From: an uncultured bacterium
GTDB taxonomy: Bacteria; Patescibacteriota; Minisyncoccia; UBA6257; GWB1-50-10
Assembly: GCA_963713955.1 (NCBI GenBank)
Contig: OY970216.1
Coordinates: 296,850 to 360,849, forward strand
Length of the DNA stretch: 64,000 bases
Reading direction: 5' to 3'
Part shown: piece after piece, positions 2,593-47,654 of the stretch
Position numbering within the stretch: the stretch's first letter is position 1
How the letters are laid out: each line of letters begins with the position of its first letter
Notes under the pieces: model-generated
What the model saw: only the letters and a program-made list of their open reading frames with translations
Databases searched by the model: none
Told to the model about the DNA's origin: nothing
Translations under genes and position numbers: made by a program

Positions 2593-3387
2593 ATGGGAAA
2601 TAAAAAATTGAAAGAAGCCGTCGGAATAGTCGTCGCGATCGTGGCTATCACCCTCGTCGCTTATTTCGGGTTTTTGAAAGGCGGGGCAGGGAGCGTGAAA
2701 ACACCTGCGCCGACCACCCTCGTTATTTCGGAGCAACCGCTCGACGAGGCTGGCCCGGGTTATTCCATAATCGGATCTTATCCGGTTCTCCAGGGCGGAA
2801 AAGAGAGCGGTGCTTTTAACGGCTATATTTCTTCAATGGTCCAGTCCCGAATTGATGATTTCAAACAATCCTTCGGCGAGAGGGACATTTCGAGGTTACC
2901 GCTGGAGATGCAGGAAGTCACAAGTACCCTCATAATCAATTATTCAATAGAAGCAACGTCGACCGATTTCATGAGTGTTCTTTTGTCGTCCGAAAGCTAC
3001 TTAGTCGGCATGGCGCATCCGTCGCACGCCATGGATTCCGTGAATTTCGATTTGACGACGGGGAAAGATTTGGCCTTGGGGGATTTCTTCGCCCCCGGGT
3101 CGGATTATTTGAAAATTATCGCCGATTACGCGAAAAGCGACATTTTGAATCAGATCAAGGATGGAACGTATTTCTCGACCGAAGATTACCTGGATCAGAG
3201 CGGAGGACTTCTTCCCGATGAATCGAATTTCCAGGTGTTCAATGTAACCCCCGACGCGCTGGTTGTCCATTTCCAGGAATATCAAGTAGGACCCTACGTT
3301 TCGGGTCCCGCGACGACCACGATTCCCTGGAGCATCTTCAAGGGTGTTTTGAATCCCGTGGGCCCGTTGAACCGTTTATTTCATTGA
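2593..3387 (+). CDS. hypothetical membrane-anchored/secreted protein
   Basis: N-terminal TM helix (VGIVVAIVAITLVAYFGF) then about 230 aa soluble domain; no confident family. Confidence 0.45.
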   Translation: MGNKKLKEAVGIVVAIVAITLVAYFGFLKGGAGSVKTPAPTTLVISEQPLDEAGPGYSIIGSYPVLQGGKESGAFNGYISSMVQSRIDDFKQSFGERDISRLPLEMQEVTSTLIINYSIEATSTDFMSVLLSSESYLVGMAHPSHAMDSVNFDLTTGKDLALGDFFAPGSDYLKIIADYAKSDILNQIKDGTYFSTEDYLDQSGGLLPDESNFQVFNVTPDALVVHFQEYQVGPYVSGPATTTIPWSIFKGVLNPVGPLNRLFH

Positions 3388-3436
3388 TTCAAAATGCTAT
3401 AATAGTCTAAAGGCCGATTTATTGAGGATAAAAGAT

Positions 3437-9252: not shown

Positions 9253-9774
9253 ATGATTGCGATGACTACTGGCATCCAACCACGTATCGTCATTTCTGGA
9301 GAGACAGAAGACGGTATTGTTGGGAAAATACTTAACTATATAGCCGATCCTCCCCCTCCGGAACAGCGTCGTTATACGAAAAGGTTCTTTGGGTTGTGGC
9401 GTGAAGGAATATGTATGGGGAAGATTGTGAAACAAAAGAGAACGAGGAATGGTGGGGTTGAGGGGACTTTCGATGTTGCCCTTGAGATAGGCACAAGAGA
9501 GGCAGAGAAGAATATTTCCTTAGGCATCCTTTTGAGGGAAGTCCCAGGACTGAAGTTTAGCTTAAAGGATATGAGGAGAGACTCTTCAGGTTGGGTAGAG
9601 TTGCATATCGGCGGGGATGTAGATCGCCGGAAAATACCAAACATTGTGGACCTTATACTGGCTACTTATGTAACCAATCATAAGGAGACGCATCCTGTAG
9701 TGCCCGACAAGCCCGGAGGAAAAATTCAACGGTTTTGTTCCACCAGTGCTGGCAATCCTTTTGCGACGAAGTGA
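9253..9774 (+). CDS. hypothetical protein
   Basis: ORF 9169-9774 trimmed to the internal Met (MIAMTTGIQ); no family recognised; lies after an AT-rich intergenic stretch. Confidence 0.3.
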   Translation: MIAMTTGIQPRIVISGETEDGIVGKILNYIADPPPPEQRRYTKRFFGLWREGICMGKIVKQKRTRNGGVEGTFDVALEIGTREAEKNISLGILLREVPGLKFSLKDMRRDSSGWVELHIGGDVDRRKIPNIVDLILATYVTNHKETHPVVPDKPGGKIQRFCSTSAGNPFATK

Positions 9775-9897
9775 ACCGATTTTTTCTCTCGCGGGTAAAA
9801 AATACTCCGAGGGAACTTCTAACGAAAGCTGTGGTGACCCCGCAGCTTTTTTCCTTTTATTTGCCCAGAGGTGAAGAGTGATTTAAAATATTTGCAT

Positions 9898-10377
9898 ATG
9901 CAGAAAAATAAAACAAAAGCAGTGGCGTTAGTCGTCGTGTTAGTGGTAATAGTAGTCGCCCTGATCATCACGTTATCGGGGAGCAAAAATACGAATAACC
10001 AAGCGAATCAAAATCAAATGACGAACACAAATTCAAACGACAACCTTCAAGTAACGGATGAAGTCATGGGAACAGGCACGGAGGCGGTTGCGGGAGATCT
10101 CGTGACGGTGAACTACGTGGGAACGCTCGCGAATGGAACAGTCTTCGACGCGTCCGCGAGCCACGGGAATCAAGGTTTCACGTTCCTCTTGGGAGCGGGG
10201 CAAGTGATCAAGGGATGGGATGAAGGCGTTGCCGGCATGAAGGTCGGCGGCAAGCGGAAGCTTGTGATTCCCTCAGACCTGGCCTATGGGTCAAACGGTA
10301 TTCCGGGAGTGATCCCGCCGAACTCGACTTTGATTTTCGAAGTGGGGCTTTTGTCCGTTAAGCAAGCGGGGCAGTAA
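9898..10377 (+). CDS. FKBP-type peptidyl-prolyl cis-trans isomerase, membrane-anchored
   Basis: VTVNYVGTLANGTVFDAS...GAGQVIKGWDEGVAGMKVGGKRKLVIPSDLAYG is a canonical FKBP domain; N-terminal TM helix plus N/Q-rich linker. Confidence 0.8.
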   Translation: MQKNKTKAVALVVVLVVIVVALIITLSGSKNTNNQANQNQMTNTNSNDNLQVTDEVMGTGTEAVAGDLVTVNYVGTLANGTVFDASASHGNQGFTFLLGAGQVIKGWDEGVAGMKVGGKRKLVIPSDLAYGSNGIPGVIPPNSTLIFEVGLLSVKQAGQ

Positions 10378-35729: not shown

Positions 35730-35785
35730 TATCCCCAGATTTATGGCTTCCCGCTCTCATTATTGAGAGCGGGAAGCCTTATTAG
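35730..35785. repeat. family-3 palindromic hairpin, copy 1 (ggcttcccgctctc-attatt-gagagcgggaagcc); probable bidirectional terminator
   Basis: 14-bp perfect stem; lies between tRNA-Pro (+) and the HhH-GPD glycosylase stop (-); near-identical 55-nt copy at 40525-40572. Confidence 0.5.
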
Positions 35786-40524: not shown

Positions 40525-40572
40525 TCCCCAAAATCTATGGCTTCCCGCTCTCGTTATTGAGAGCGGGAAGCC
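40525..40572. repeat. family-3 palindromic hairpin, copy 2 (ggcttcccgctctc-gttatt-gagagcgggaagcc)
   Basis: In the divergent promoter region between the helicase-nuclease (-) and the 40633 gene (+); a partial third arm gagcgggaggcc follows. Confidence 0.5.
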
Positions 40573-40632: not shown

Positions 40633-41067
40633 ATGTCTTGGGAGCTTTTTGAGAAGGTGAAAAACATAGGCCTGCCGGCCGGATCCTACGCCATCTTCGG
40701 GAGCGGCCCCATGGGGGTGAGGGGAATCCGGGATTGCGGGAACATGGACGTCGTCGTGACGGACGAGCTCTTTGACGAATACCGTGGTATGTCCGGCTGG
40801 GACTTAAAAGACTCAAGAGACGATGAATATTTGTTGAATAACGGCATTTTCCTCTGGAAAGGCTGGGGGCCGGGTGAGTGGAACGTCAAGCAATTGATAG
40901 AAGATGCCGAAATGATAGAGGGGTTGCCCTTCGTGCGGCTCTCAGATGTCCTCAAATGGAAGAAATTAAGCGGAAGGGAAAAGGACTTGAAAGACATAAA
41001 ATTGATTGAGAGTTATTTGGACAAGAATGACGGGAAGATCGCGCCCGTGGCAAAATCCCCGAAATAG
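40633..41067 (+). CDS. nucleotidyltransferase-fold protein (minimal NTase, GS..DxD)
   Basis: IFGSGPMGVRGIRDCGNMDVVV fits the hG[GS]x9-13DxD pol-beta NTase signature; 144 aa; the rest is unassigned. Confidence 0.4.
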   Translation: MSWELFEKVKNIGLPAGSYAIFGSGPMGVRGIRDCGNMDVVVTDELFDEYRGMSGWDLKDSRDDEYLLNNGIFLWKGWGPGEWNVKQLIEDAEMIEGLPFVRLSDVLKWKKLSGREKDLKDIKLIESYLDKNDGKIAPVAKSPK

Positions 41068-41090
41068 GATAGAATAGGAAAAGTTTTCTT

Positions 41091-41107
41091 GGGCCTATGG
41101 TACAGTG
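41091..41107 (+). repeat. 17-nt partial copy of the tRNA-Ala 5' end (gggcctatggtacagtg versus gggcctatggtctagtg)
   Basis: Direct repeat 395 nt upstream of tRNA-Ala, bracketing a structured region and the GIY-YIG gene. Confidence 0.5.
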
Positions 41108-41232
41108 TCCCGATAATCTCAAAATCTTTGATTTTGTGAGATTATCGAGGATCCGCGATTTTGTAGATTTGCTTCGCAAATACAAAATCGGGAGCAAAAC
41201 GCGGCATTCGTCCCGATTTCTAAAATTTTGGA

Positions 41233-41478
41233 ATGTTTTTCACCTACATTCTAAAATCGTCACTTAACAACTCCTATTACGTTGGGAGTTGTAAAGACAT
41301 AAAAGAGAGATTAAGATTGCATAATGGCGGACGCGTAAGATCAACGAAGAGATGGATACCTTGGCGATTGATGCATCTTGAGTTATTTGAGACCTTGCGA
41401 GAAGCTAGGCGAAGAGAATTGCAAATTAAATCTTGGAAAAAACGGAAAGCTATTGAGAATTTGATAGAACAACAATAG
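41233..41478 (+). CDS. GIY-YIG nuclease family protein (UPF0213/YhbQ-like)
   Basis: FTYILKS...YYVGSC.D...RL..HN motif; 81 aa. Confidence 0.8.
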   Translation: MFFTYILKSSLNNSYYVGSCKDIKERLRLHNGGRVRSTKRWIPWRLMHLELFETLREARRRELQIKSWKKRKAIENLIEQQ

Positions 41479-41485
41479 CTTTGAC

Positions 41486-41556
41486 GGGCCTATGGTCTAG
41501 TGGCAGAACGGCGCATTCGCATTGCGCAGACGGCGGTTCGATTCCGCCTAGGTCCA
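41486..41556 (+). tRNA. tRNA-Ala (anticodon CGC)
   Basis: Hand-folded: acceptor gggccta/taggtcc with a G3.U70 pair, anticodon stem gcgca/tgcgc, loop uuCGCau, T-arm ggcgg-ttcgatt-ccgcc, discriminator A. Confidence 0.75.
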
Positions 41557-41743
41557 CAGGAGTTGAGTACATACTCAACCCATGATGAAATAACCGCATA
41601 AATGCTAGGGTTGTTTAAGGAAGGTCCCGTTATAAGGCGATACTTTTCGTTTAGGCCAGACTTCCCCAGGTTCTAGATATTTCCTATGGGAAACCAAAAT
41701 AAAAGACCCTGGTAAAAATCAGGGCCTTCCGCTTTCTTGGATT

Positions 41744-42343
41744 TCATCGTTGAATTGGTGCATATTTCTCGGCTATAAAATCAGCGATTTGTTTTAAGAT
41801 TCTTCGCCCTATGGGCATCGGAGCAGTGTAAACAGCTTCAACAAATGAACGGCCGCACCGCGCACAATGATTTGAATCCCAAAGCACATCCCGACACCAG
41901 TTGCACCAACGGAAAACTGGTTTGCCACACTGCAAGCAGTAATGGTCTCCTTTAAGCAAAGGAGTTCCACAGCCACGGCAAGTTTTTCTAATGTCAACTT
42001 TTACAGCCTCTTTTTTGACGTGTTTTGAAACACCGAGGCGTTTGTCGGCAATCCGTTTCGCAAATTTGCGTCCTATGTAGATCAGCAATCCCTCGAGTAG
42101 GCCTGCGCCAAGATACAAATATGCTGTGTAGGATGGAATCTTCCATAAATGGAACGCGCTATCAAGGAATCCGATTAGGCCAACAAAAAGAATAATAGAA
42201 ATCCCAGCGACAAGGAACCTATTAAGAGCGCGTTGTTCTATGTAGTTTCTAAGATCCCATCCCCAACGGTCCCCACACTCCTCGCAGAAATCAAAGCCGA
42301 TAATTTCACAGCCACAGTGTATGCAGTGCGACATCATAATCAC
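41744..42343 (-). CDS. zinc-ribbon-rich membrane protein
   Basis: Four CxxC pairs (CIHCGC..CEEC; CRGC..CLQC; CNWC..CARC) and 2 TM helices; 199 aa. Confidence 0.45.
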   Translation of the reverse strand: MIMMSHCIHCGCEIIGFDFCEECGDRWGWDLRNYIEQRALNRFLVAGISIILFVGLIGFLDSAFHLWKIPSYTAYLYLGAGLLEGLLIYIGRKFAKRIADKRLGVSKHVKKEAVKVDIRKTCRGCGTPLLKGDHYCLQCGKPVFRWCNWCRDVLWDSNHCARCGRSFVEAVYTAPMPIGRRILKQIADFIAEKYAPIQR

Positions 42344-42346
42344 CTC

Positions 42347-42577
42347 CTATCTTTTAAGTTGTAAAAGACCATTTCGTATTTTGCACTCCTTCCCGATGAA
42401 GTGACGCAGATCGATCTTAGAAGAAACTCCTGACTGCAAAGTTATAAATTCTTTTTTCCCCGAGAACAATCCCGCCTCGATTTCGAGAACTATGTTGCCT
42501 TCACAACTGTAAACGTCTTTTACGGTACCTTCGATATTTGCAGGCTTCCATTCAACGAAAACAAGACAATCGCTCAT
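42347..42577 (-). CDS. hypothetical small protein
   Basis: 76 aa; operonic (3-nt gap and 4-nt overlap) with the flanking zinc-ribbon genes. Confidence 0.35.
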   Translation of the reverse strand: MSDCLVFVEWKPANIEGTVKDVYSCEGNIVLEIEAGLFSGKKEFITLQSGVSSKIDLRHFIGKECKIRNGLLQLKR

Positions 42578-42825
42578 TTTACAACCTCCCTCTTTCCGCC
42601 ACTCGTTAATCTGTGAATTAGGGCCAGAAGTAGTTGGCGCAACAAGCTTGGTGGTTTGTCTTTAGTTGCACTGTCCAGCGAACGACCGCAGGAAGGACAA
42701 TAACTCTCCAAGATTTCGGTACTACAGAAATTACACCTTGGGAAGGGTCGTGTGTTTTTCCCGCATTTTTTACAAAACTTCTGGTCGTCGGTTGCCAAGC
42801 TTCCGCAAGAAATACAGCGTCTCAT
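42574..42825 (-). CDS. double zinc-ribbon protein
   Basis: CISCGS..CKKCGK and CNFCST..CPSCGR. Confidence 0.45.
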   Translation of the reverse strand: MRRCISCGSLATDDQKFCKKCGKNTRPFPRCNFCSTEILESYCPSCGRSLDSATKDKPPSLLRQLLLALIHRLTSGGKREVVK

Positions 42826-42936
42826 AGATTCCTCCTTTTCTTTTGGTTTGTGAACTTAACTAACCGAATCATGTCTATTTGTTATATATCTGTCAATCTG
42901 TTGACGAAAACCGACAAAAAGACTATTATGGGCTGA

Positions 42937-43746
42937 ATGATCCAAATCTACAGAACTCTTAAAGAGGTGGGGATACCGGAAATGGCCAGCCGTATATATG
43001 AGCAGCTTCTCGAATCCGGCTCTGTTTCGGCTAGACAGCTGGCCGAAAAACTGAACGTTCCTCGCCCCTCCGTTTATGACAATCTTAAACTCCTCATAAA
43101 GAACGGATTAGTGGTGGAACGAGAAGAGGAGAACAAAAAAATATTCGGCGTTGATGACATTAGAAACCTGTCACATCTCTTCCAGTCAAAAATCGAGCTC
43201 CTCAAAGAACGAGAGAGCGAGTTGAAGGAATTTTTGTCTACCCTTACTAAACAGGCGAGGTCTTTCGAGCCGAAAATCAAGTTCTACTCCGGTTCGGAGG
43301 GCATCAAGCAGGTTTTGAACAACCTTCTTTGGTACGACAATATCGAAACGTTGACGATGTGGCCGATCAGTGAGATAGTCGATGTTTTAGGCAAAGAATA
43401 CTTGGCGGATCTGAATCGCCGCCGCATCCGCCAGAAGATCTCCATCAGGGGCATTTGGCCGCAAGATAAAACCATTAATTTCAAGGATTATCCGTTCCTT
43501 GGTGTTGGTAGGGGTCACCTGCGGGAATTGTGTTTGGCGCCCAAGGGCATGACATGGCAGATGAGTTACTGGCAGTATGCCGACAAGGTCGCTTTCATAT
43601 CTTCCAAAAAGGAGCTGTTCGGTTTCGTGATCCATAGCCGGGATTTTGTCACCCTGACAAAATCCCAGTTTGAAGTTATCTGGAAAATTTCAAAGCCGAT
43701 CCAGCCGCAGCCTCAATACACGGATTCATTCTTGGAGACGGTGTAG
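42937..43746 (+). CDS. TrmB-family transcriptional regulator
   Basis: N-terminal wHTH ASRIYEQLLESGSVSARQLAEKLNVPRPSVYDNLKLLIKNGLV plus TrmB-like C-terminal domain. Confidence 0.65.
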   Translation: MIQIYRTLKEVGIPEMASRIYEQLLESGSVSARQLAEKLNVPRPSVYDNLKLLIKNGLVVEREEENKKIFGVDDIRNLSHLFQSKIELLKERESELKEFLSTLTKQARSFEPKIKFYSGSEGIKQVLNNLLWYDNIETLTMWPISEIVDVLGKEYLADLNRRRIRQKISIRGIWPQDKTINFKDYPFLGVGRGHLRELCLAPKGMTWQMSYWQYADKVAFISSKKELFGFVIHSRDFVTLTKSQFEVIWKISKPIQPQPQYTDSFLETV

Positions 43747-43922
43747 GATTCACATACTGAAAAATCCAATAATGACTGAACAAGCAATTTCTCCCACCTA
43801 TCATTGTGGATAGAATCTCTGTACCATGGATCACATGCTGGTAGGAGAAGAACTTTCTTTTTTGATTTTCTCCCGCACAGAGGTTCTAACAAATTCTATT
43901 AGCCTCCACAGGAGTTGAATAA

Positions 43923-45473
43923 ATGAAGTTCTATTTATCATCTTACAGGCTTGGAGAAAAAACCGAAGAATTAAAAAAGCTGGTTCCTGCCGGAAGAATC
44001 GGTTATATCCCCAATGCTCTCGACTCTTCCGGGGTGGACCCGGGGCGGAGAAGGAAGCACATTGAAGAAGATATTAATTCGTTGCGTGAGCTCGGGCTCA
44101 AAGTTGAGTTGATTGACCTGCGCGACTACTTTGATAAACACAATGATTTAAAGAGCAAGCTTAAGGAACTTGGTGCGGTTTTTGTGAGTGGGGGCAATGT
44201 TTTTGTTCTGCGCCAAGCGATGAGATTGAGCCATCTTGACGAGATTCTAAAAGAACTGCGAGAGAAAAATAATTTTCTCTATGCAGGTTACAGTGCCGCT
44301 GGATGCGTTCTCGCGCCGAACCTCAAAGCATATGAGATTGTGGACACAGTACAAACCCCATACAAGGAGCTGAAAGAAGCCATTTGGGATGGATTGGGAT
44401 TTATTGACTTCGCTTTTATGCCGCACTGGAATTCCGATCATCCGGAATCCGCAGACATTGAGAGAGAGATTGAGTATTGTAAAGAGAACAACATCCCCTA
44501 TAAAGCGATTAGGGATGGGGAGGTTATAATTATGGAAAATAAGACAAAACCAATTCTTATAACCTGTTATGTGAACCCCGACCTTGATGGCGTCGCCAGC
44601 GCAATCGCCTACGGCGAATTTTTGCAGAAAACGGGCAAGAACGCCGTCGTCAGGATCATCGGTGAACCGCACGACGAAGCGAAGTATGTTTTAAACCGCT
44701 TTGGCTTCGCGTATCCCCAAACGATATCTAACGCGGACGATTTCGACGAAGTAATACTCGTGGACACGAGCAACCCCAACGGACTCGAAGGTAAGATTGC
44801 TCCCGAGAAAGTCATCGAGATCATTGATCATCGCAAAGTTCATGATGCAGGTGAATTTCCGAACGCCAAGGTGCAGATCGAGCTCATCGGGGCGGCCGCT
44901 ACGCTTATCGCGGAAAAATTCATGCGGAACAACATTGCCATCTCGAAAGAGTCCGCGACACTCGTTTATGGGGCGATAATTTCAAATACTCTCAACTTCA
45001 AGAGTGGCGTCACCACCGACCGCGACAGGGAAGCGGCCGCGTGGCTCAATAAGGTTGCGGGATTGCCCGAAGATTTCTGGAGAGATCTGTTTACTGCGAA
45101 ATCCGACTTATCCGGTGGGAAGCTTGCTGAGCGAATCGAGAGCGATTTCGCGTGGTTCGTGATGGGCGGAAAGAAAGTCGGCGTCGCCCAAATCGAAATG
45201 ATCGGCGCGAAGGAGCTGCTCGATGAGCGAAGCGGCGAAGTAGTTCAAATCCTCGACAGAATTAAGAAAGACATGAACCTGGATCACATTTTCCAAAACA
45301 CGATAGAGCTGGAAAACGCAAAGAACTTTTTTGTTGCCCAAGATCTAGACACGCAAAAACTTTTGGAAAAAGTTTTGAGTGTGCGATTTGCCGGCGTCGT
45401 CGCGGAGCGGCCCGATCTCATCATGAGGAAGCAAATTGTTCCCTTGTTGAAGGAAGAGTTGGATCGGGAATAG
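43923..45473 (+). CDS. fusion protein: N-terminal peptidase S51 (PepE-like) domain plus C-terminal DHH-superfamily phosphoesterase (family II pyrophosphatase/NrnA-like)
   Basis: N-terminal half: VSGGNVFVL and YAGYSAAGCVLAPN align with PepE (VGGGNTFQLL and YIGWSAGANLACP; my recollection of E. coli PepE). C-terminal half: NPDLDGVASAIAY (DHH motif I) and IIDHRK (motif III-like). Confidence 0.6.
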   Translation: MKFYLSSYRLGEKTEELKKLVPAGRIGYIPNALDSSGVDPGRRRKHIEEDINSLRELGLKVELIDLRDYFDKHNDLKSKLKELGAVFVSGGNVFVLRQAMRLSHLDEILKELREKNNFLYAGYSAAGCVLAPNLKAYEIVDTVQTPYKELKEAIWDGLGFIDFAFMPHWNSDHPESADIEREIEYCKENNIPYKAIRDGEVIIMENKTKPILITCYVNPDLDGVASAIAYGEFLQKTGKNAVVRIIGEPHDEAKYVLNRFGFAYPQTISNADDFDEVILVDTSNPNGLEGKIAPEKVIEIIDHRKVHDAGEFPNAKVQIELIGAAATLIAEKFMRNNIAISKESATLVYGAIISNTLNFKSGVTTDRDREAAAWLNKVAGLPEDFWRDLFTAKSDLSGGKLAERIESDFAWFVMGGKKVGVAQIEMIGAKELLDERSGEVVQILDRIKKDMNLDHIFQNTIELENAKNFFVAQDLDTQKLLEKVLSVRFAGVVAERPDLIMRKQIVPLLKEELDRE

Positions 45474-45519
45474 CTGCCGGTTTTCGCCGGAATGCCGGAT
45501 CCGTGGTAAACTGTAAACG

Positions 45520-45843
45520 TTGCCTATAATCATGAAAAAATCGGACTATCTCTTGAAAAGCTTCATAAATGCCGCAGCTACATTTGTTTATGTATCCGCC
45601 GTGGCGTGGTTCGGTTTCAACAGCCAGGCGATTTTCGGTAAGCAGCAAACCTTTCTCGCTCCGCTTCTCATGCTTTTGCTCTTTGTTGTGTCGGCGTTGA
45701 TAACAGGCCTCCTGGTTTTAGGGAAGCCGATCCATTTGTACTTGAGCGGCCTCAAGAAAGAAGCGTTCGTTTTATTCTTCGCCACTTTGGTGTGGCTCGT
45801 TTTGTTTCTGCTTGTTGTTGCCGCTGTGCTCTTGCCACGGTAA
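45520..45843 (+). CDS. small 3-TM membrane protein
   Basis: 107 aa, hydrophobic. Confidence 0.35.
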   Translation: MPIIMKKSDYLLKSFINAAATFVYVSAVAWFGFNSQAIFGKQQTFLAPLLMLLLFVVSALITGLLVLGKPIHLYLSGLKKEAFVLFFATLVWLVLFLLVVAAVLLPR

Positions 45844-45892
45844 TAATTCGGGGTTTGAAAGTTACCTCTGCCGCCGGTATAATGACTCAATA

Positions 45893-46180
45893 ATGTTAAC
45901 CAAAAAAGATTTGGAGAAATTGGCTGATCTTTCCCGGATGAAGCTGAAGGAAGGGGAAGAGGATAAGTTACTGCATGACTTGGGCGGCATCTTGGATCAT
46001 TTCGAGGAACTGAAGGAATTGAATACCGACGAGGTTCTGCCGATGAACGGCGGGACGTTGTCGTCGAACGTCTGGAGAGATGACGAGCCGACGAACGCGC
46101 TGGACGGGAAAGCCGCCAGGGAAGAATTCCCGGAAACGAAAGACGGATACTTGAAGGTTCCACCGGTCTTTGAGGAGTAA
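45893..46180 (+). CDS. gatC: Asp/Glu-tRNA amidotransferase subunit C
   Basis: MLTKKDLEKLADLSRMKLKEGEE...LKELNTDEV is the GatC pattern; start trimmed to ATG 45893; 4-nt overlap with gatA. Confidence 0.8.
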   Translation: MLTKKDLEKLADLSRMKLKEGEEDKLLHDLGGILDHFEELKELNTDEVLPMNGGTLSSNVWRDDEPTNALDGKAAREEFPETKDGYLKVPPVFEE

Positions 46181-46211
46181 TCGCGAATATACGTTTTACC
46201 AAATAACGCGA

Positions 46212-47654
46212 ATGGACTTAAACGAACTGACCATAAAAGAATTCCATAAGGGGCTTGAGGGAAAAAAGTTTTCCGCGAGGGAAGTGACGGCAGCATTTTT
46301 GAAGGCCATAAAAGAGAAAGACGGTGAATTGAATGCCTACCTGTCTGTTTTTGAGAGTCAAGCTCTTGAAGCAGCCGCGGCCGTGGATAAAAAAATCGCT
46401 TCGGGCGGGGTGGTTCCGGCCTTGGCCGGCGTGCCATTGGCCGTGAAGGATAACATGCTTATTGAAGGCACGAAAACCACCGCCGCTTCCAAGATACTGG
46501 AAAATTACGTGGCTTCATACGATGCGACCGTGATAGGAAAACTCAAGAAGGAGGACGCCGTGTTTTTGGGAAAGACAAATTTGGACGAGTTCGCCATGGG
46601 ATCCTCGACGGAATATTCCGCTTTCAAGAAAACCAAAAATCCCCATGACCTGACGAGAGTCCCGGGTGGATCTTCCGGCGGTTCGGCCGCGGCAGTCGCG
46701 GCTACTATGGCGATGGCAGCCTTGGGGAGCGATACGAGCGGTTCCATATGTCTTCCGGCCGCGTTCTGCGGCGTTGTGGGACTTCGCCCATCGTACGGCT
46801 CGGTATCGCGCTCCGGACTCATAGCCATGGCTTCAAGCCTTGACCAGATAGGTCCGATAACCAAGACAGTGGAGGACGCGGAAATTTTATTCAGGAGCAT
46901 CGCGGGAAGAGACGATCTGGATTCCACAAGCATCGACTATTCTTACGAAGAAGTGAAAGATTTGGAGAACGTCAAAAAGTTGAGAGTGGGTTTACCGAAG
47001 GAATTCTTCGTATCGGGTCTCAGCAAGGAAATCGAGGAGGGCATCGAGTCCGCCATTCAAAAGCTCAAAAAGCTTGGGTTGGAATTCAAGGAAGTGAACC
47101 TTCCCCATGCGAAATACGCCTTGTCTTGTTATTACATCATTATGCCCGCGGAAGTGAGTTCAAACCTCGCCCGTTTCGAAGGAGTGCGGTACCCGGGAAT
47201 ACCCGAGGTGAGAAAAGAAGCGGAGAGTTTGAGTGATCTTTATCTCAGAACACGGGGTGTCGGATTCGGACTCGAACCGAGGCGGCGCGTTTTGCTCGGG
47301 ACGTTCGTCTTGTCGGCCGGCTACTATGACGCATATTACGCCAAAGCCCAGAAAGTAAGACGCTTGATCAAAAACGATTTTGACGATGCATTCAATGACG
47401 TTGATGTAATCATGGCGCCGGTTACGCCGACGCCGGCATTCAAATTAGGAGAAAAAGTTTCGGATCCGCTGATGATGTATCTGTCAGATATTTTTACGAC
47501 ACAGACAAACCTCGCCGGAGTTCCGGCTCTATCACTCCCGGTTAAGAAATACGAACTCGGTGGGGGAGAATTGCCCGTAGGGTTCCAGCTGATCGGAAAA
47601 CGTTTCGAGGAAAACAAAATTCTCGCGCTCGGCAAACTTTACGAGAAAAGCTGA
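46212..47654 (+). CDS. gatA: Asp/Glu-tRNA amidotransferase subunit A
   Basis: Amidase signature GGSSGGSAAAVAA; Ser-cisSer-Lys triad context. Confidence 0.9.
   Translation: MDLNELTIKEFHKGLEGKKFSAREVTAAFLKAIKEKDGELNAYLSVFESQALEAAAAVDKKIASGGVVPALAGVPLAVKDNMLIEGTKTTAASKILENYVASYDATVIGKLKKEDAVFLGKTNLDEFAMGSSTEYSAFKKTKNPHDLTRVPGGSSGGSAAAVAATMAMAALGSDTSGSICLPAAFCGVVGLRPSYGSVSRSGLIAMASSLDQIGPITKTVEDAEILFRSIAGRDDLDSTSIDYSYEEVKDLENVKKLRVGLPKEFFVSGLSKEIEEGIESAIQKLKKLGLEFKEVNLPHAKYALSCYYIIMPAEVSSNLARFEGVRYPGIPEVRKEAESLSDLYLRTRGVGFGLEPRRRVLLGTFVLSAGYYDAYYAKAQKVRRLIKNDFDDAFNDVDVIMAPVTPTPAFKLGEKVSDPLMMYLSDIFTTQTNLAGVPALSLPVKKYELGGGELPVGFQLIGKRFEENKILALGKLYEKS

Follow-up and report, generated by a model that had tools for sequence, protein, structure and literature searches.

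In bacteriophage T4, the GIY-YIG homing endonuclease SegB is encoded in a cluster of tRNA genes, where it cleaves this region in a related genome and, along with the flanking tRNA sequence, is preferentially inherited (PMC2330249). [quoted passage not shown] Here we report on a 64,000-nt stretch of DNA (the window, to whose numbering all positions refer) from a genome of the Patescibacteria (candidate phyla radiation, CPR), the genes of which have their nearest relatives in metagenome-assembled genomes (MAGs) of Nomurabacteria, Liptonbacteria and Paceibacterota. In this window a gene for a small GIY-YIG nuclease lies just upstream of a tRNA-Ala(CGC) gene. We consider it likely that the segment 41091-41556, hereafter called the window copy of the GIY-YIG element, is the fossil of a homing-type selfish cassette that entered a resident tRNA-Ala(CGC) gene within its anticodon, at 35/36, and brought a spare tRNA with it.

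The locus resembles that of SegB in that a GIY-YIG nuclease gene is set among tRNA genes. SegB is a phage protein of about 220 amino acids (aa) with a DNA-binding region, whereas the window protein is bacterial and consists of an 81-aa catalytic domain only; moreover, its gene sits within a split tRNA gene, between hairpin-forming inverted repeats and with a complete spare tRNA beside it. With the group I introns the window element shares the phylum, the tRNA anticodon loop as target and the 35/36 site, and some of these introns carry homing endonuclease genes. In contrast to them, it has no detected ribozyme, its nuclease is of the GIY-YIG type, and function would be kept by a spare DNA copy instead of by splicing. 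Islands and prophages that target tRNA genes by means of tyrosine recombinases are similar insofar as they insert into tRNA genes and restore a working tRNA with element sequence, but they need an integrase, measure kilobases and duplicate the tRNA 3' end as an attachment (att) site, whereas the window element splits the anticodon, supplies a whole tRNA and has no recombinase. Repetitive extragenic palindromes and miniature inverted-repeat transposable elements (REP/MITE), IS200/IS605-type elements and the GC clusters of yeast mitochondria (PMC4478555) are likewise short palindromic units without an open reading frame (ORF), with autonomous relatives and no obvious target duplication. The cassette, too, has terminal or subterminal hairpins and ORF-less derivatives, but it has neither a HUH nor a RAYT transposase, its protein is a GIY-YIG nuclease, and its sites lie inside tRNA sequences. 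Finally, synthetic 'cleave-and-rescue' and 'home-and-rescue' Cas9 drives have reportedly been built in insects by Oberhofer et al. in 2019 and Kandul et al. in 2021. The likeness, one of architecture, is that of a nuclease which would be directed against an essential gene and is linked to a spare copy of it. Full-text searches of the literature turned up no account that links GIY-YIG genes with split tRNA genes, nor one of this type of cassette.

Read along the plus strand, the window copy begins with nucleotides 1-17 of an old ('outer') tRNA-Ala gene (41091-41107, 15/17 identical to the live tRNA), followed by an ORF-less two-hairpin mini-element of 86 nt in the D-loop of the old tRNA (41108-41193, recognised by comparison and folding), nucleotides 18-34 of the old gene (gcaaaacgcggcattcg, 41194-41210, 14/17 identical), the left end of the GIY-YIG element (41211-41232, conserved in the Ala clade) with TCCCGAT (41211-41217) and a -10-like TAAAAT box (41221-41226), the nuclease gene itself (41233-41478) and the intact tRNA-Ala(CGC) gene. 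The latter contains a G3:U70 pair and extends from 41486 to 41556 (end called at 41556/7; Rfam RF00005, 59.1 bits). It is immediately preceded by 'tagctttgac' (41476-41485, plus strand), which comparison with intact copies identifies as the remnant of a leader stem (cf. cgatagctttggt of intact elements). With the insert removed, the old 5' half is identical to the live tRNA-Ala at 29/34 positions and stops after the second anticodon base, that is, at position 35/36. Its first piece, the 17-mer, shows 11 exact bases and then two mismatches; it is the sole match to the tRNA 5' end with at most three mismatches in the window, and 100 shuffles gave none. No fragment copies were found near the other six tRNAs of the window, so that tRNA-Ala alone among the seven has one. 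The window contains no second tRNA-Ala(CGC) besides the live copy, and no further GIY-YIG copy.

The mini-element consists of TCCCGAT (41108-41114), hairpin 1, the palindrome ATCGAGGATCCGCGAT (41144-41159), hairpin 2 and ATCGGGA (41187-41193), and the two hairpins form the two arms of the insert when it is folded as single-stranded DNA (z = -5.7, 0/200 shuffles as good). An earlier, sequence-only reading of this DNA had noticed a 17-nt copy of the tRNA 5' end, a run of three hairpins and an 81-aa GIY-YIG gene ending 8 nt before the tRNA. The copy is indeed present, and its distance of 395 nt from tRNA-Ala is correct when measured start to start, but it matches at 15 of its 17 positions and is only the first piece of a 34-nt half, the remainder of which (nucleotides 18-34) was overlooked. 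Likewise, the first two hairpins are real, whereas the third (cggga..tcccg) is made up of the ends of two neighbouring elements, ATCGGGA at 41187-41193 and TCCCGAT at 41211-41217, which adjoin nucleotides 18-34 of the old tRNA on either side. The nuclease gene was correctly identified, as judged by its match to PF01541, but the gap to the tRNA is 7 nt.

A profile search with the nuclease gave 80 metagenome loci (designated by L numbers) with 90 GIY genes, of which 73 had at least 280 nt of downstream sequence and could thus be tested. A same-strand tRNA starting no more than 200 nt downstream was found in 43/73 and an opposite-strand one in 0/73, while 53/73 had a tRNA on either side. The tRNA is Ala(CGC/UGC) in the closest relatives and Lys, Gly, Glu, Gln, Pro, Cys or Ser in more distant ones. 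Nuclease similarity amounts to 58-67% next to Ala, Lys and Gly tRNAs, 50-58% for Glu, about 40-51% for Pro and 43-49% for Gln; tRNA identity changes with nuclease distance, and nuclease similarity therefore tracks tRNA identity. A 5' copy of the same tRNA was present upstream of the GIY gene in most of the 48 cases tested (49 including the window), and in 29/49 it beat all 100 shuffles. In 13 Ala-clade loci the split always follows the second anticodon base, and the identity between the old and the new 5' half ranges from 36/36 (L025) down to about 21/33, a spread that would be expected if the insertions differ in age. Among 91 plus-strand GIY genes, a TCCCGAT-like left end was seen in 49, a central palindrome in 20 and an ATCGGGA-like right end in 20. 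The palindrome and the right end occur mainly in Ala and Lys loci, and C36 and the old 3' half come after the right end.

Well-preserved Ala and Lys loci, including L025, L032, L048, L052 and L043, reveal the organisation of intact copies, in which the old 5' and 3' halves enclose TCCCGAT, the GIY gene, ATCGNGGATCCNCGAT, a stem, a whole tRNA, the complementary stem and ATCGGGA. On the left, TCCCGAT is followed by about 15 nt with a TATAAAAT-like box, the GIY ORF and then the palindrome ATCGNGGATCCNCGAT; on the right, a stem of about 9 nt precedes the complete tRNA (often with encoded CCA), and after the tRNA come the complementary stem strand of 9 nt, ATCGGGA, C36 and finally the old 3' half. 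Folded as a single strand, such a copy forms two long-stem domains, the loop of the first holding the ORF and that of the second the tRNA (L048, z = -4.1). The GIY-YIG gene is the only ORF in full elements, which contain no HUH (TnpA) or other known transposase. In the window copy the central palindrome, whose normal place is after the GIY gene and before the leader stem of the cargo tRNA, is absent, as are the trailer stem, the right end of the element and the 3' half of the old tRNA. There is a single occurrence of the palindrome motif in the 64-kb window, and ATCGGGA is found there at chance frequency. When 41573-47000 was searched on both strands for the old tRNA 3' half or the right element end, only the region of a 14-mer repeat (see below) beat shuffles. 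An Rfam scan of the window region and five intact loci detected only tRNAs, and no intron, ribozyme (RF00028) or small RNA.

The elements are nested two or three deep in some loci. In L039 (2865-3540) and L037 (2400-3010) the tRNA of the cassette has been split again at 35/36 by an ORF-less element with a third intact tRNA, and in L037 the two halves of the middle tRNA have kept their full complementarity. Decayed or chimeric forms are frequent among the outer halves; 3/15 reconstructions were called as tRNA, and two of these three are copies of one sequence. ORF-less two-hairpin units are found within tRNAs after about nucleotide 11 (D-stem/D-loop), in the D-loop after nucleotide 17, at 27/28 and in the T-loop. 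Mini-elements homologous to that of the window occupy the same D-loop site in L039, L040, L046, L027 and L042, with conserved ends and differing stem sequences. Element copies are also present in intergenic DNA (L034, L044), with clean ends and no evident target duplication. Those in protein genes are always accompanied by a duplicated gene segment that leaves one intact copy: L029 (457-960) has an old 67-nt 5' fragment of atpG to the left of the element and a complete atpG to the right, and in L061 (2890-3380; L050 is near-identical) the left side carries a complete gene and the right side an old C-terminal fragment of 21 codons. L011, a locus of another MAG from the genome collection (9534-10000), shares the layout of the tRNA loci, with a GIY gene, a 5' fragment of tRNA-Ser(UGA) and two GC hairpins directly 5' of an intact tRNA-Ser. 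The order 594-aa gene, tRNA-Pro(CGG), GIY, tRNA-Ala(CGC) is common to the window, L028, L032, L037, L038 and L103, indicating that the insertion is old in this lineage. An element-free tRNA-Ala(CGC) is found in L006, which is not a close relative and differs in gene order.

In other clades, whole tRNA arms are swapped for element-type hairpins. This was seen at L069 (3234-3308), L088 (1482-1557), L090 (2575-2649), L078 (826-902), L066 (438-513) and L025 (about 3372-3421); in the last of these the T-arm of the outer copy, just 3' of the right element end, is the one replaced. The anticodon arm may be exchanged for TCCCGAT-loop-ATCGGGA, which ARAGORN labels 'tRNA-Ile(tat)' or 'tRNA-Stop(tta)', and in tRNA-Pro the D-arm may be exchanged for CCCCGCC-loop-GGCGGGG. 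Loci of the Pro clade also show tandem tRNA-GIY-tRNA(-GIY) arrays.

The 81-aa product of the nuclease gene matches PF01541 over residues 1-71 with 60.4 bits (cut-off 22.6, E = 2.1e-16). Among 28 family members, including the window protein, Y5, Y16, G18, R26, H30 and E62 are invariant and N31 nearly so. The AlphaFold2 model (pLDDT 96.1) has the order strand-strand-helix-strand-helix-helix, and its Foldseek matches are 1zg2, Slx1, I-TevI and UvrC-N. A sequence search of the PDB returned 1zg2 (E = 6.6e-10), 1ywl (2e-8), Slx1 (5.5e-5) and I-TevI (3.9e-4). Judging from these matches, the nuclease is a member of the UPF0213/YhbQ-Slx1 branch and is not nearest to I-TevI or UvrC; by sequence and model it looks functional and Slx1-like. 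The Pfam scan and the AlphaFold2 model gave no DNA-binding module for a long target, only the catalytic domain. UPF0213/YhbQ proteins (1zg2, 1ywl) and the nuclease domain of Slx1 are thus the best matches in sequence and fold, and they have the stand-alone GIY-YIG catalytic core in common with the window protein. Slx1 carries in addition a RING/PHD domain, partners Slx4 and acts in eukaryotic repair, and to our knowledge UPF0213 proteins have no established function. Unlike the window nuclease, neither has a known link with tRNA genes or hairpin elements. The nuclease family is large (4,732 clusters at E <= 1e-10). In a search for carriage by phages, IMG/VR yielded no relatives, and an exact-protein look-up gave no match for the GIY protein or for a 144-aa protein.

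The architecture, the recurrence and the nesting of the cassette, as well as the conservation of its nuclease, are evident from these comparisons. A homing-type cassette with a spare copy would explain why cargo and target tRNA match, why the orientation is constant, why elements are nested and why the decay of the outer halves is graded. As seen in relatives, a complete cassette comprises two long-stem hairpin domains within TCCCGAT...ATCGGGA, with the nuclease gene and its own -10-like box in loop 1 and, in loop 2, a complete tRNA whose identity is that of the broken gene. According to this explanation, the host would therefore keep a working tRNA while the old gene decays as halves. The nuclease would break element-free target alleles, and in their repair an occupied allele would be the template for the cassette, with the flanking gene halves serving as homology arms. 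We infer cleavage, target specificity, homing and immunity of the spare copy from this arrangement of sequences. In the window, the old 5' half would also have been struck in its D-loop by an ORF-less two-hairpin derivative, and the right side of the cassette would have been lost, so that only 7 nt now separate the nuclease gene from the spare tRNA downstream of it; this loss may have been caused by recombination between the 3' halves, present as direct repeats. The window copy is unable to form either hairpin domain and is therefore regarded as a fossil with an intact nuclease ORF. The live tRNA-Ala at 41486-41556, which the sequence-only reading took for the original target, is most likely the cargo of the cassette.

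Several observations weigh against the homing explanation and should be underlined. The right end is missing in the window, and the assignment of the live tRNA as cargo therefore rests on comparison with other loci. Cleavage, homing and transposition are here predictions drawn from the architecture. The 81-aa protein has no DNA-binding domain, which leaves sequence-specific recognition of a tRNA gene unaccounted for, and the anticodon loop does not differ between the spare tRNA and the target, which leaves immunity unaccounted for. Occupied and empty alleles were not seen together in any one species, and an identical nuclease (P0018) was found at one tRNA locus only. Further, the conserved order tRNA-Pro(CGG)-GIY-tRNA-Ala(CGC) fits long vertical inheritance equally well as repeated homing, and the Pro and Val/Ile clades, with their tandem whole tRNAs and hairpin-replaced arms, differ in layout and fall outside the simple model. 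More tentatively, as a possibility that we hold to be less than probable, the cassettes could be natural 'cleave-and-rescue' drives, in which a minimal Slx1-like nuclease acting on hairpin or cruciform DNA would break an essential gene, usually that of a tRNA, and spread by way of the linked spare copy, successive invasions giving rise to nested tRNA genes.

Some further features were noted around the window copy. A promoter-like site, GTGGCA-17-TAGAAT, lies at 41047-41075 on the plus strand, 16 nt 5' of the start of the old tRNA-Ala. It is a consensus match only, in a window where the count of such matches is not above that in shuffles; perhaps it once served the tRNA as its promoter and now reads into the elements. 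The TAAAAT box at 41221-41226 is situated 6 nt 5' of the GIY-YIG ATG, and its position suggests that the mRNA is leaderless or has a short leader, the role of the box as a promoter being a prediction. A 45-nt degenerate repeat was considered and given no weight, as beyond the 17-mer it matched at only 18/28 positions and was absent from homologous loci. Two segments, 41456-41470 and 43883-43897, form a 15-nt inverted repeat with 14/15 complementary positions. The first arm belongs to the 3' end of the GIY gene and is 16 nt ahead of the tRNA, and the second lies 8 nt before copy 2 of the 14-mer. The repeat matches no stem of the intact elements and may be due to chance, since another 15-nt inverted repeat (93%) exists in the same 4 kb. 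Lastly, contigs of the same strain (L001, L117 and L118) from two independent sequencing runs end at window position 41528, in the T-arm of tRNA-Ala; a repeat or allelic heterogeneity upstream of that point could be the reason.

On the other side of tRNA-Ala, the 14-mer tccacaggagttga occurs exactly at 41553-41566 and at 43905-43918, as had been stated in the sequence-only reading, and the match extends to 18/20. Copy 1 (plus strand) consists of the last 4 nt of the tRNA, which is its entire overlap with the tRNA, and 10 nt of trailer, and part of it pairs with 41573-41581 as a short hairpin. Copy 2 (plus strand) contains AGGAG and is located 4 nt before the ATG of a Peptidase_S51-DHH fusion gene (43923-45473, plus strand). 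The two copies enclose three co-oriented small genes for proteins of 199, 76 and 83 aa (41744-42825, minus strand), for which there is a terminator-like site at 41730-41701, and a gene for a TrmB-family regulator that is conserved in Patescibacteria (42937-43746, plus strand). None of 200 shuffles of the 5.4 kb downstream scored as high as the 14-mer. Independent exact direct repeats of at least 14 nt within 5 kb number five in the window, where about 1.2 chance 14-mers are expected, and the chance of one such repeat abutting a tRNA end is about 0.01. An alignment of the 60 nt upstream of copy 2 to the tRNA 3' half was no better than that of random windows, and no recombinase domain was detected in the ORFs between 40633 and 45473, in agreement with the earlier statement that the locus has no integrase. 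The proviso that the match might reflect a ribosome-binding context does not stand: the 14-mer occurs only twice in the window, and Shine-Dalgarno-like motifs precede only about 11/63 long ORFs. The sequence AGGAGTTGA occurs three times, one of them inside a gene.

As to the genes themselves, Pfam confirmed the identification of TrmB and PepE-DHH. The proposal of three zinc-ribbon proteins was correct for the 83-aa protein, which scores above the Pfam cut-offs, but the 199-aa protein is a membrane protein with a weak double zinc ribbon below cut-off, and the 76-aa protein has no domain hit. TrmB has 268 homologues at E <= 1e-10, and the 120 best of these 268 are 57-100% identical, mostly about 267 aa long and spread over many lineages of Patescibacteria. 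About 45 nt upstream of TrmB are conserved at the DNA level in relatives, and its neighbours differ in the three closest ones (L104-L106). In the nearest comparable relatives TrmB is at most 82% and the DHH part at most 81% identical, with other neighbours, and further exact-protein matches belong to the same strain only. The 14-mer repeat is thus statistically unusual but not compelling as evidence of an islet. The collections contained no close relative that could show an empty site; an insertion or rearrangement of 2.35 kb is possible but unsupported, and the right bracket is probably unrelated to the GIY-YIG element.

How these data bear on other explanations can now be considered. A serious alternative as to mechanism, though an unlikely one overall, is that of a hairpin transposon: the TCCCGAT...ATCGGGA units would themselves be mobile, with the GIY copies as autonomous and the ORF-less ones as miniature elements, and the structure-specific nuclease would cut extruded hairpins or cruciforms, both at the ends of the element and at tRNA stem-loops, insertions in essential genes surviving only where a spare copy comes along with them. 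It would fit a nuclease that is nearest to the structure-specific Slx1 and has no DNA-binding domain, the long-stem folds of the elements, the replacement of whole tRNA arms by element hairpins (L069, L078, L025), the intergenic copies with clean ends and no evident target duplication, and the variety of tRNA sites at which mini-elements are found (about nucleotide 11, the D-loop after nucleotide 17, 27/28 and the T-loop). However, the palindrome motif is single-copy in the 64-kb window, and the strong same-strand bias together with the match between cargo and target tRNA suits homing better. We also know of no GIY-YIG transposase, which counts against this alternative. The sequence-only reading, for its part, regarded tRNA-Ala as an att hotspot, with the GIY gene and the 2.35-kb zinc-ribbon/TrmB block as decayed islets of a site-specific recombinase. 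It was right in spirit to see on the left side the footprint of an insertion into a tRNA gene with a selfish GIY-YIG gene, and both repeats do exist; the 14-mer beats shuffles and its position at the tRNA end is improbable by chance, and in L006 other genes stand between tRNA-Ala and the DHH gene, a sign that the region is variable. Nevertheless, we regard this model as improbable. The left repeat is not an att-type tRNA end but a 5' half ending in the anticodon at 35/36, with element-specific ends found in many genomes, and what it marks is a hairpin-bounded cassette of about 0.3-0.6 kb with no sign of a former integrase. The right bracket fares no better as a decayed islet: it shares a mere 4 nt with the tRNA, has no 3'-half remnant by copy 2 and no recombinase, and encloses TrmB, a conserved gene of the lineage which has its own conserved upstream region and variable neighbours.

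Two other readings appear highly improbable. If the inserts were introns at the RNA level, they would be spliced from the outer tRNA precursor and the inner tRNA released, the nuclease being an intron-encoded or splicing protein. Position 35/36 is indeed a proven group I intron site in the tRNA-Asn and the tRNA-Asp of Patescibacteria (bioRxiv 10.1101/2025.07.03.662931; PMC13011429), and the complementary halves of the middle tRNA in L037 would be in keeping with splicing. Against it, no intron or ribozyme family was found in the window or the five intact loci, the outer halves are often decayed or chimeric and seldom yield a recognisable tRNA when rejoined, the window has no 3' half that could act as an exon, and copies sit in intergenic DNA and protein genes as well, with duplications at the DNA level. 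An ordinary host arrangement, in which the GIY-YIG gene would have a housekeeping role and be transcribed together with tRNAs, and in which a decayed tandem tRNA duplication would have left the tRNA fragment behind, has just as little to recommend it overall. The order next to tRNA-Pro and tRNA-Ala is conserved in several relatives, the family is very large (4,732 clusters), and the ORF has stayed intact despite the lost hairpins, all of which would agree with such an arrangement. Yet it leaves aside the precise and recurrent 35/36 junction, the shared terminal motifs, the nesting and the ORF-less derivatives, as well as the copies in unrelated genes with compensating duplications.

Elsewhere in the window, a 37-nt near-perfect palindromic hairpin (TATGGCTTCCCGCTCTC-loop-GAGAGCGGGAAGCC) is present at 35742-35778 and again at 40536-40572, 4794 nt apart. 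Between the two copies lie a gene for a MutY-like glycosylase, an ORF of 235 aa and a gene for a PcrA/UvrD-like helicase-nuclease. The block is absent in L028, L032, L037 and L103, in which tRNA-Pro(CGG) lies 100-320 nt from the GIY-tRNA-Ala unit. As a bracket, the 37-nt repeat is much stronger than the 14-mer. The gene at 43923-45473 joins Peptidase_S51 (PepE-like) and DHH/DHHA2 in one ORF of 516 aa. Among the 120 best homologues of the fusion, the Peptidase_S51 domain occurs only in the protein of the same strain, the rest being DHH/DHHA2 only and nearly all about 308 aa long; one Logan assembly of the same strain has the fusion gene divided into calls of 463 + 62 aa. In L011, a gene starting 41 nt after tRNA-Ser encodes a PepE homologue that shares 74% identity with the N-terminal part of the fusion protein. 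Finally, TATAAT-like boxes are located 6-12 nt 5' of many starts (for example 40496-, 57701+, 28384+ and 1897+) and Shine-Dalgarno motifs are few, a pattern that suggests widespread leaderless or short-leader mRNAs in the window.

Returning to the favoured cassette, its logic would be the invasion of an essential single-copy gene without splicing, by bringing a spare, a logic otherwise known from engineered gene drives. It would account for the small GIY-YIG genes of unknown function beside tRNA genes in uncultured bacteria, and it would be a source of tRNA gene turnover and of tRNA pseudogene halves in very small genomes. For annotation the loci are a warning, as tRNA callers report hairpin-disrupted pseudo-tRNAs. 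The cassettes also offer a testable substrate for UPF0213 proteins. If the tentative proposal of natural cleave-and-rescue drives is true, the cassettes would represent a new class of bacterial mobile elements, widespread in Patescibacteria and possibly beyond, and their spread could be the so far unexplained function of part of the large UPF0213 family.

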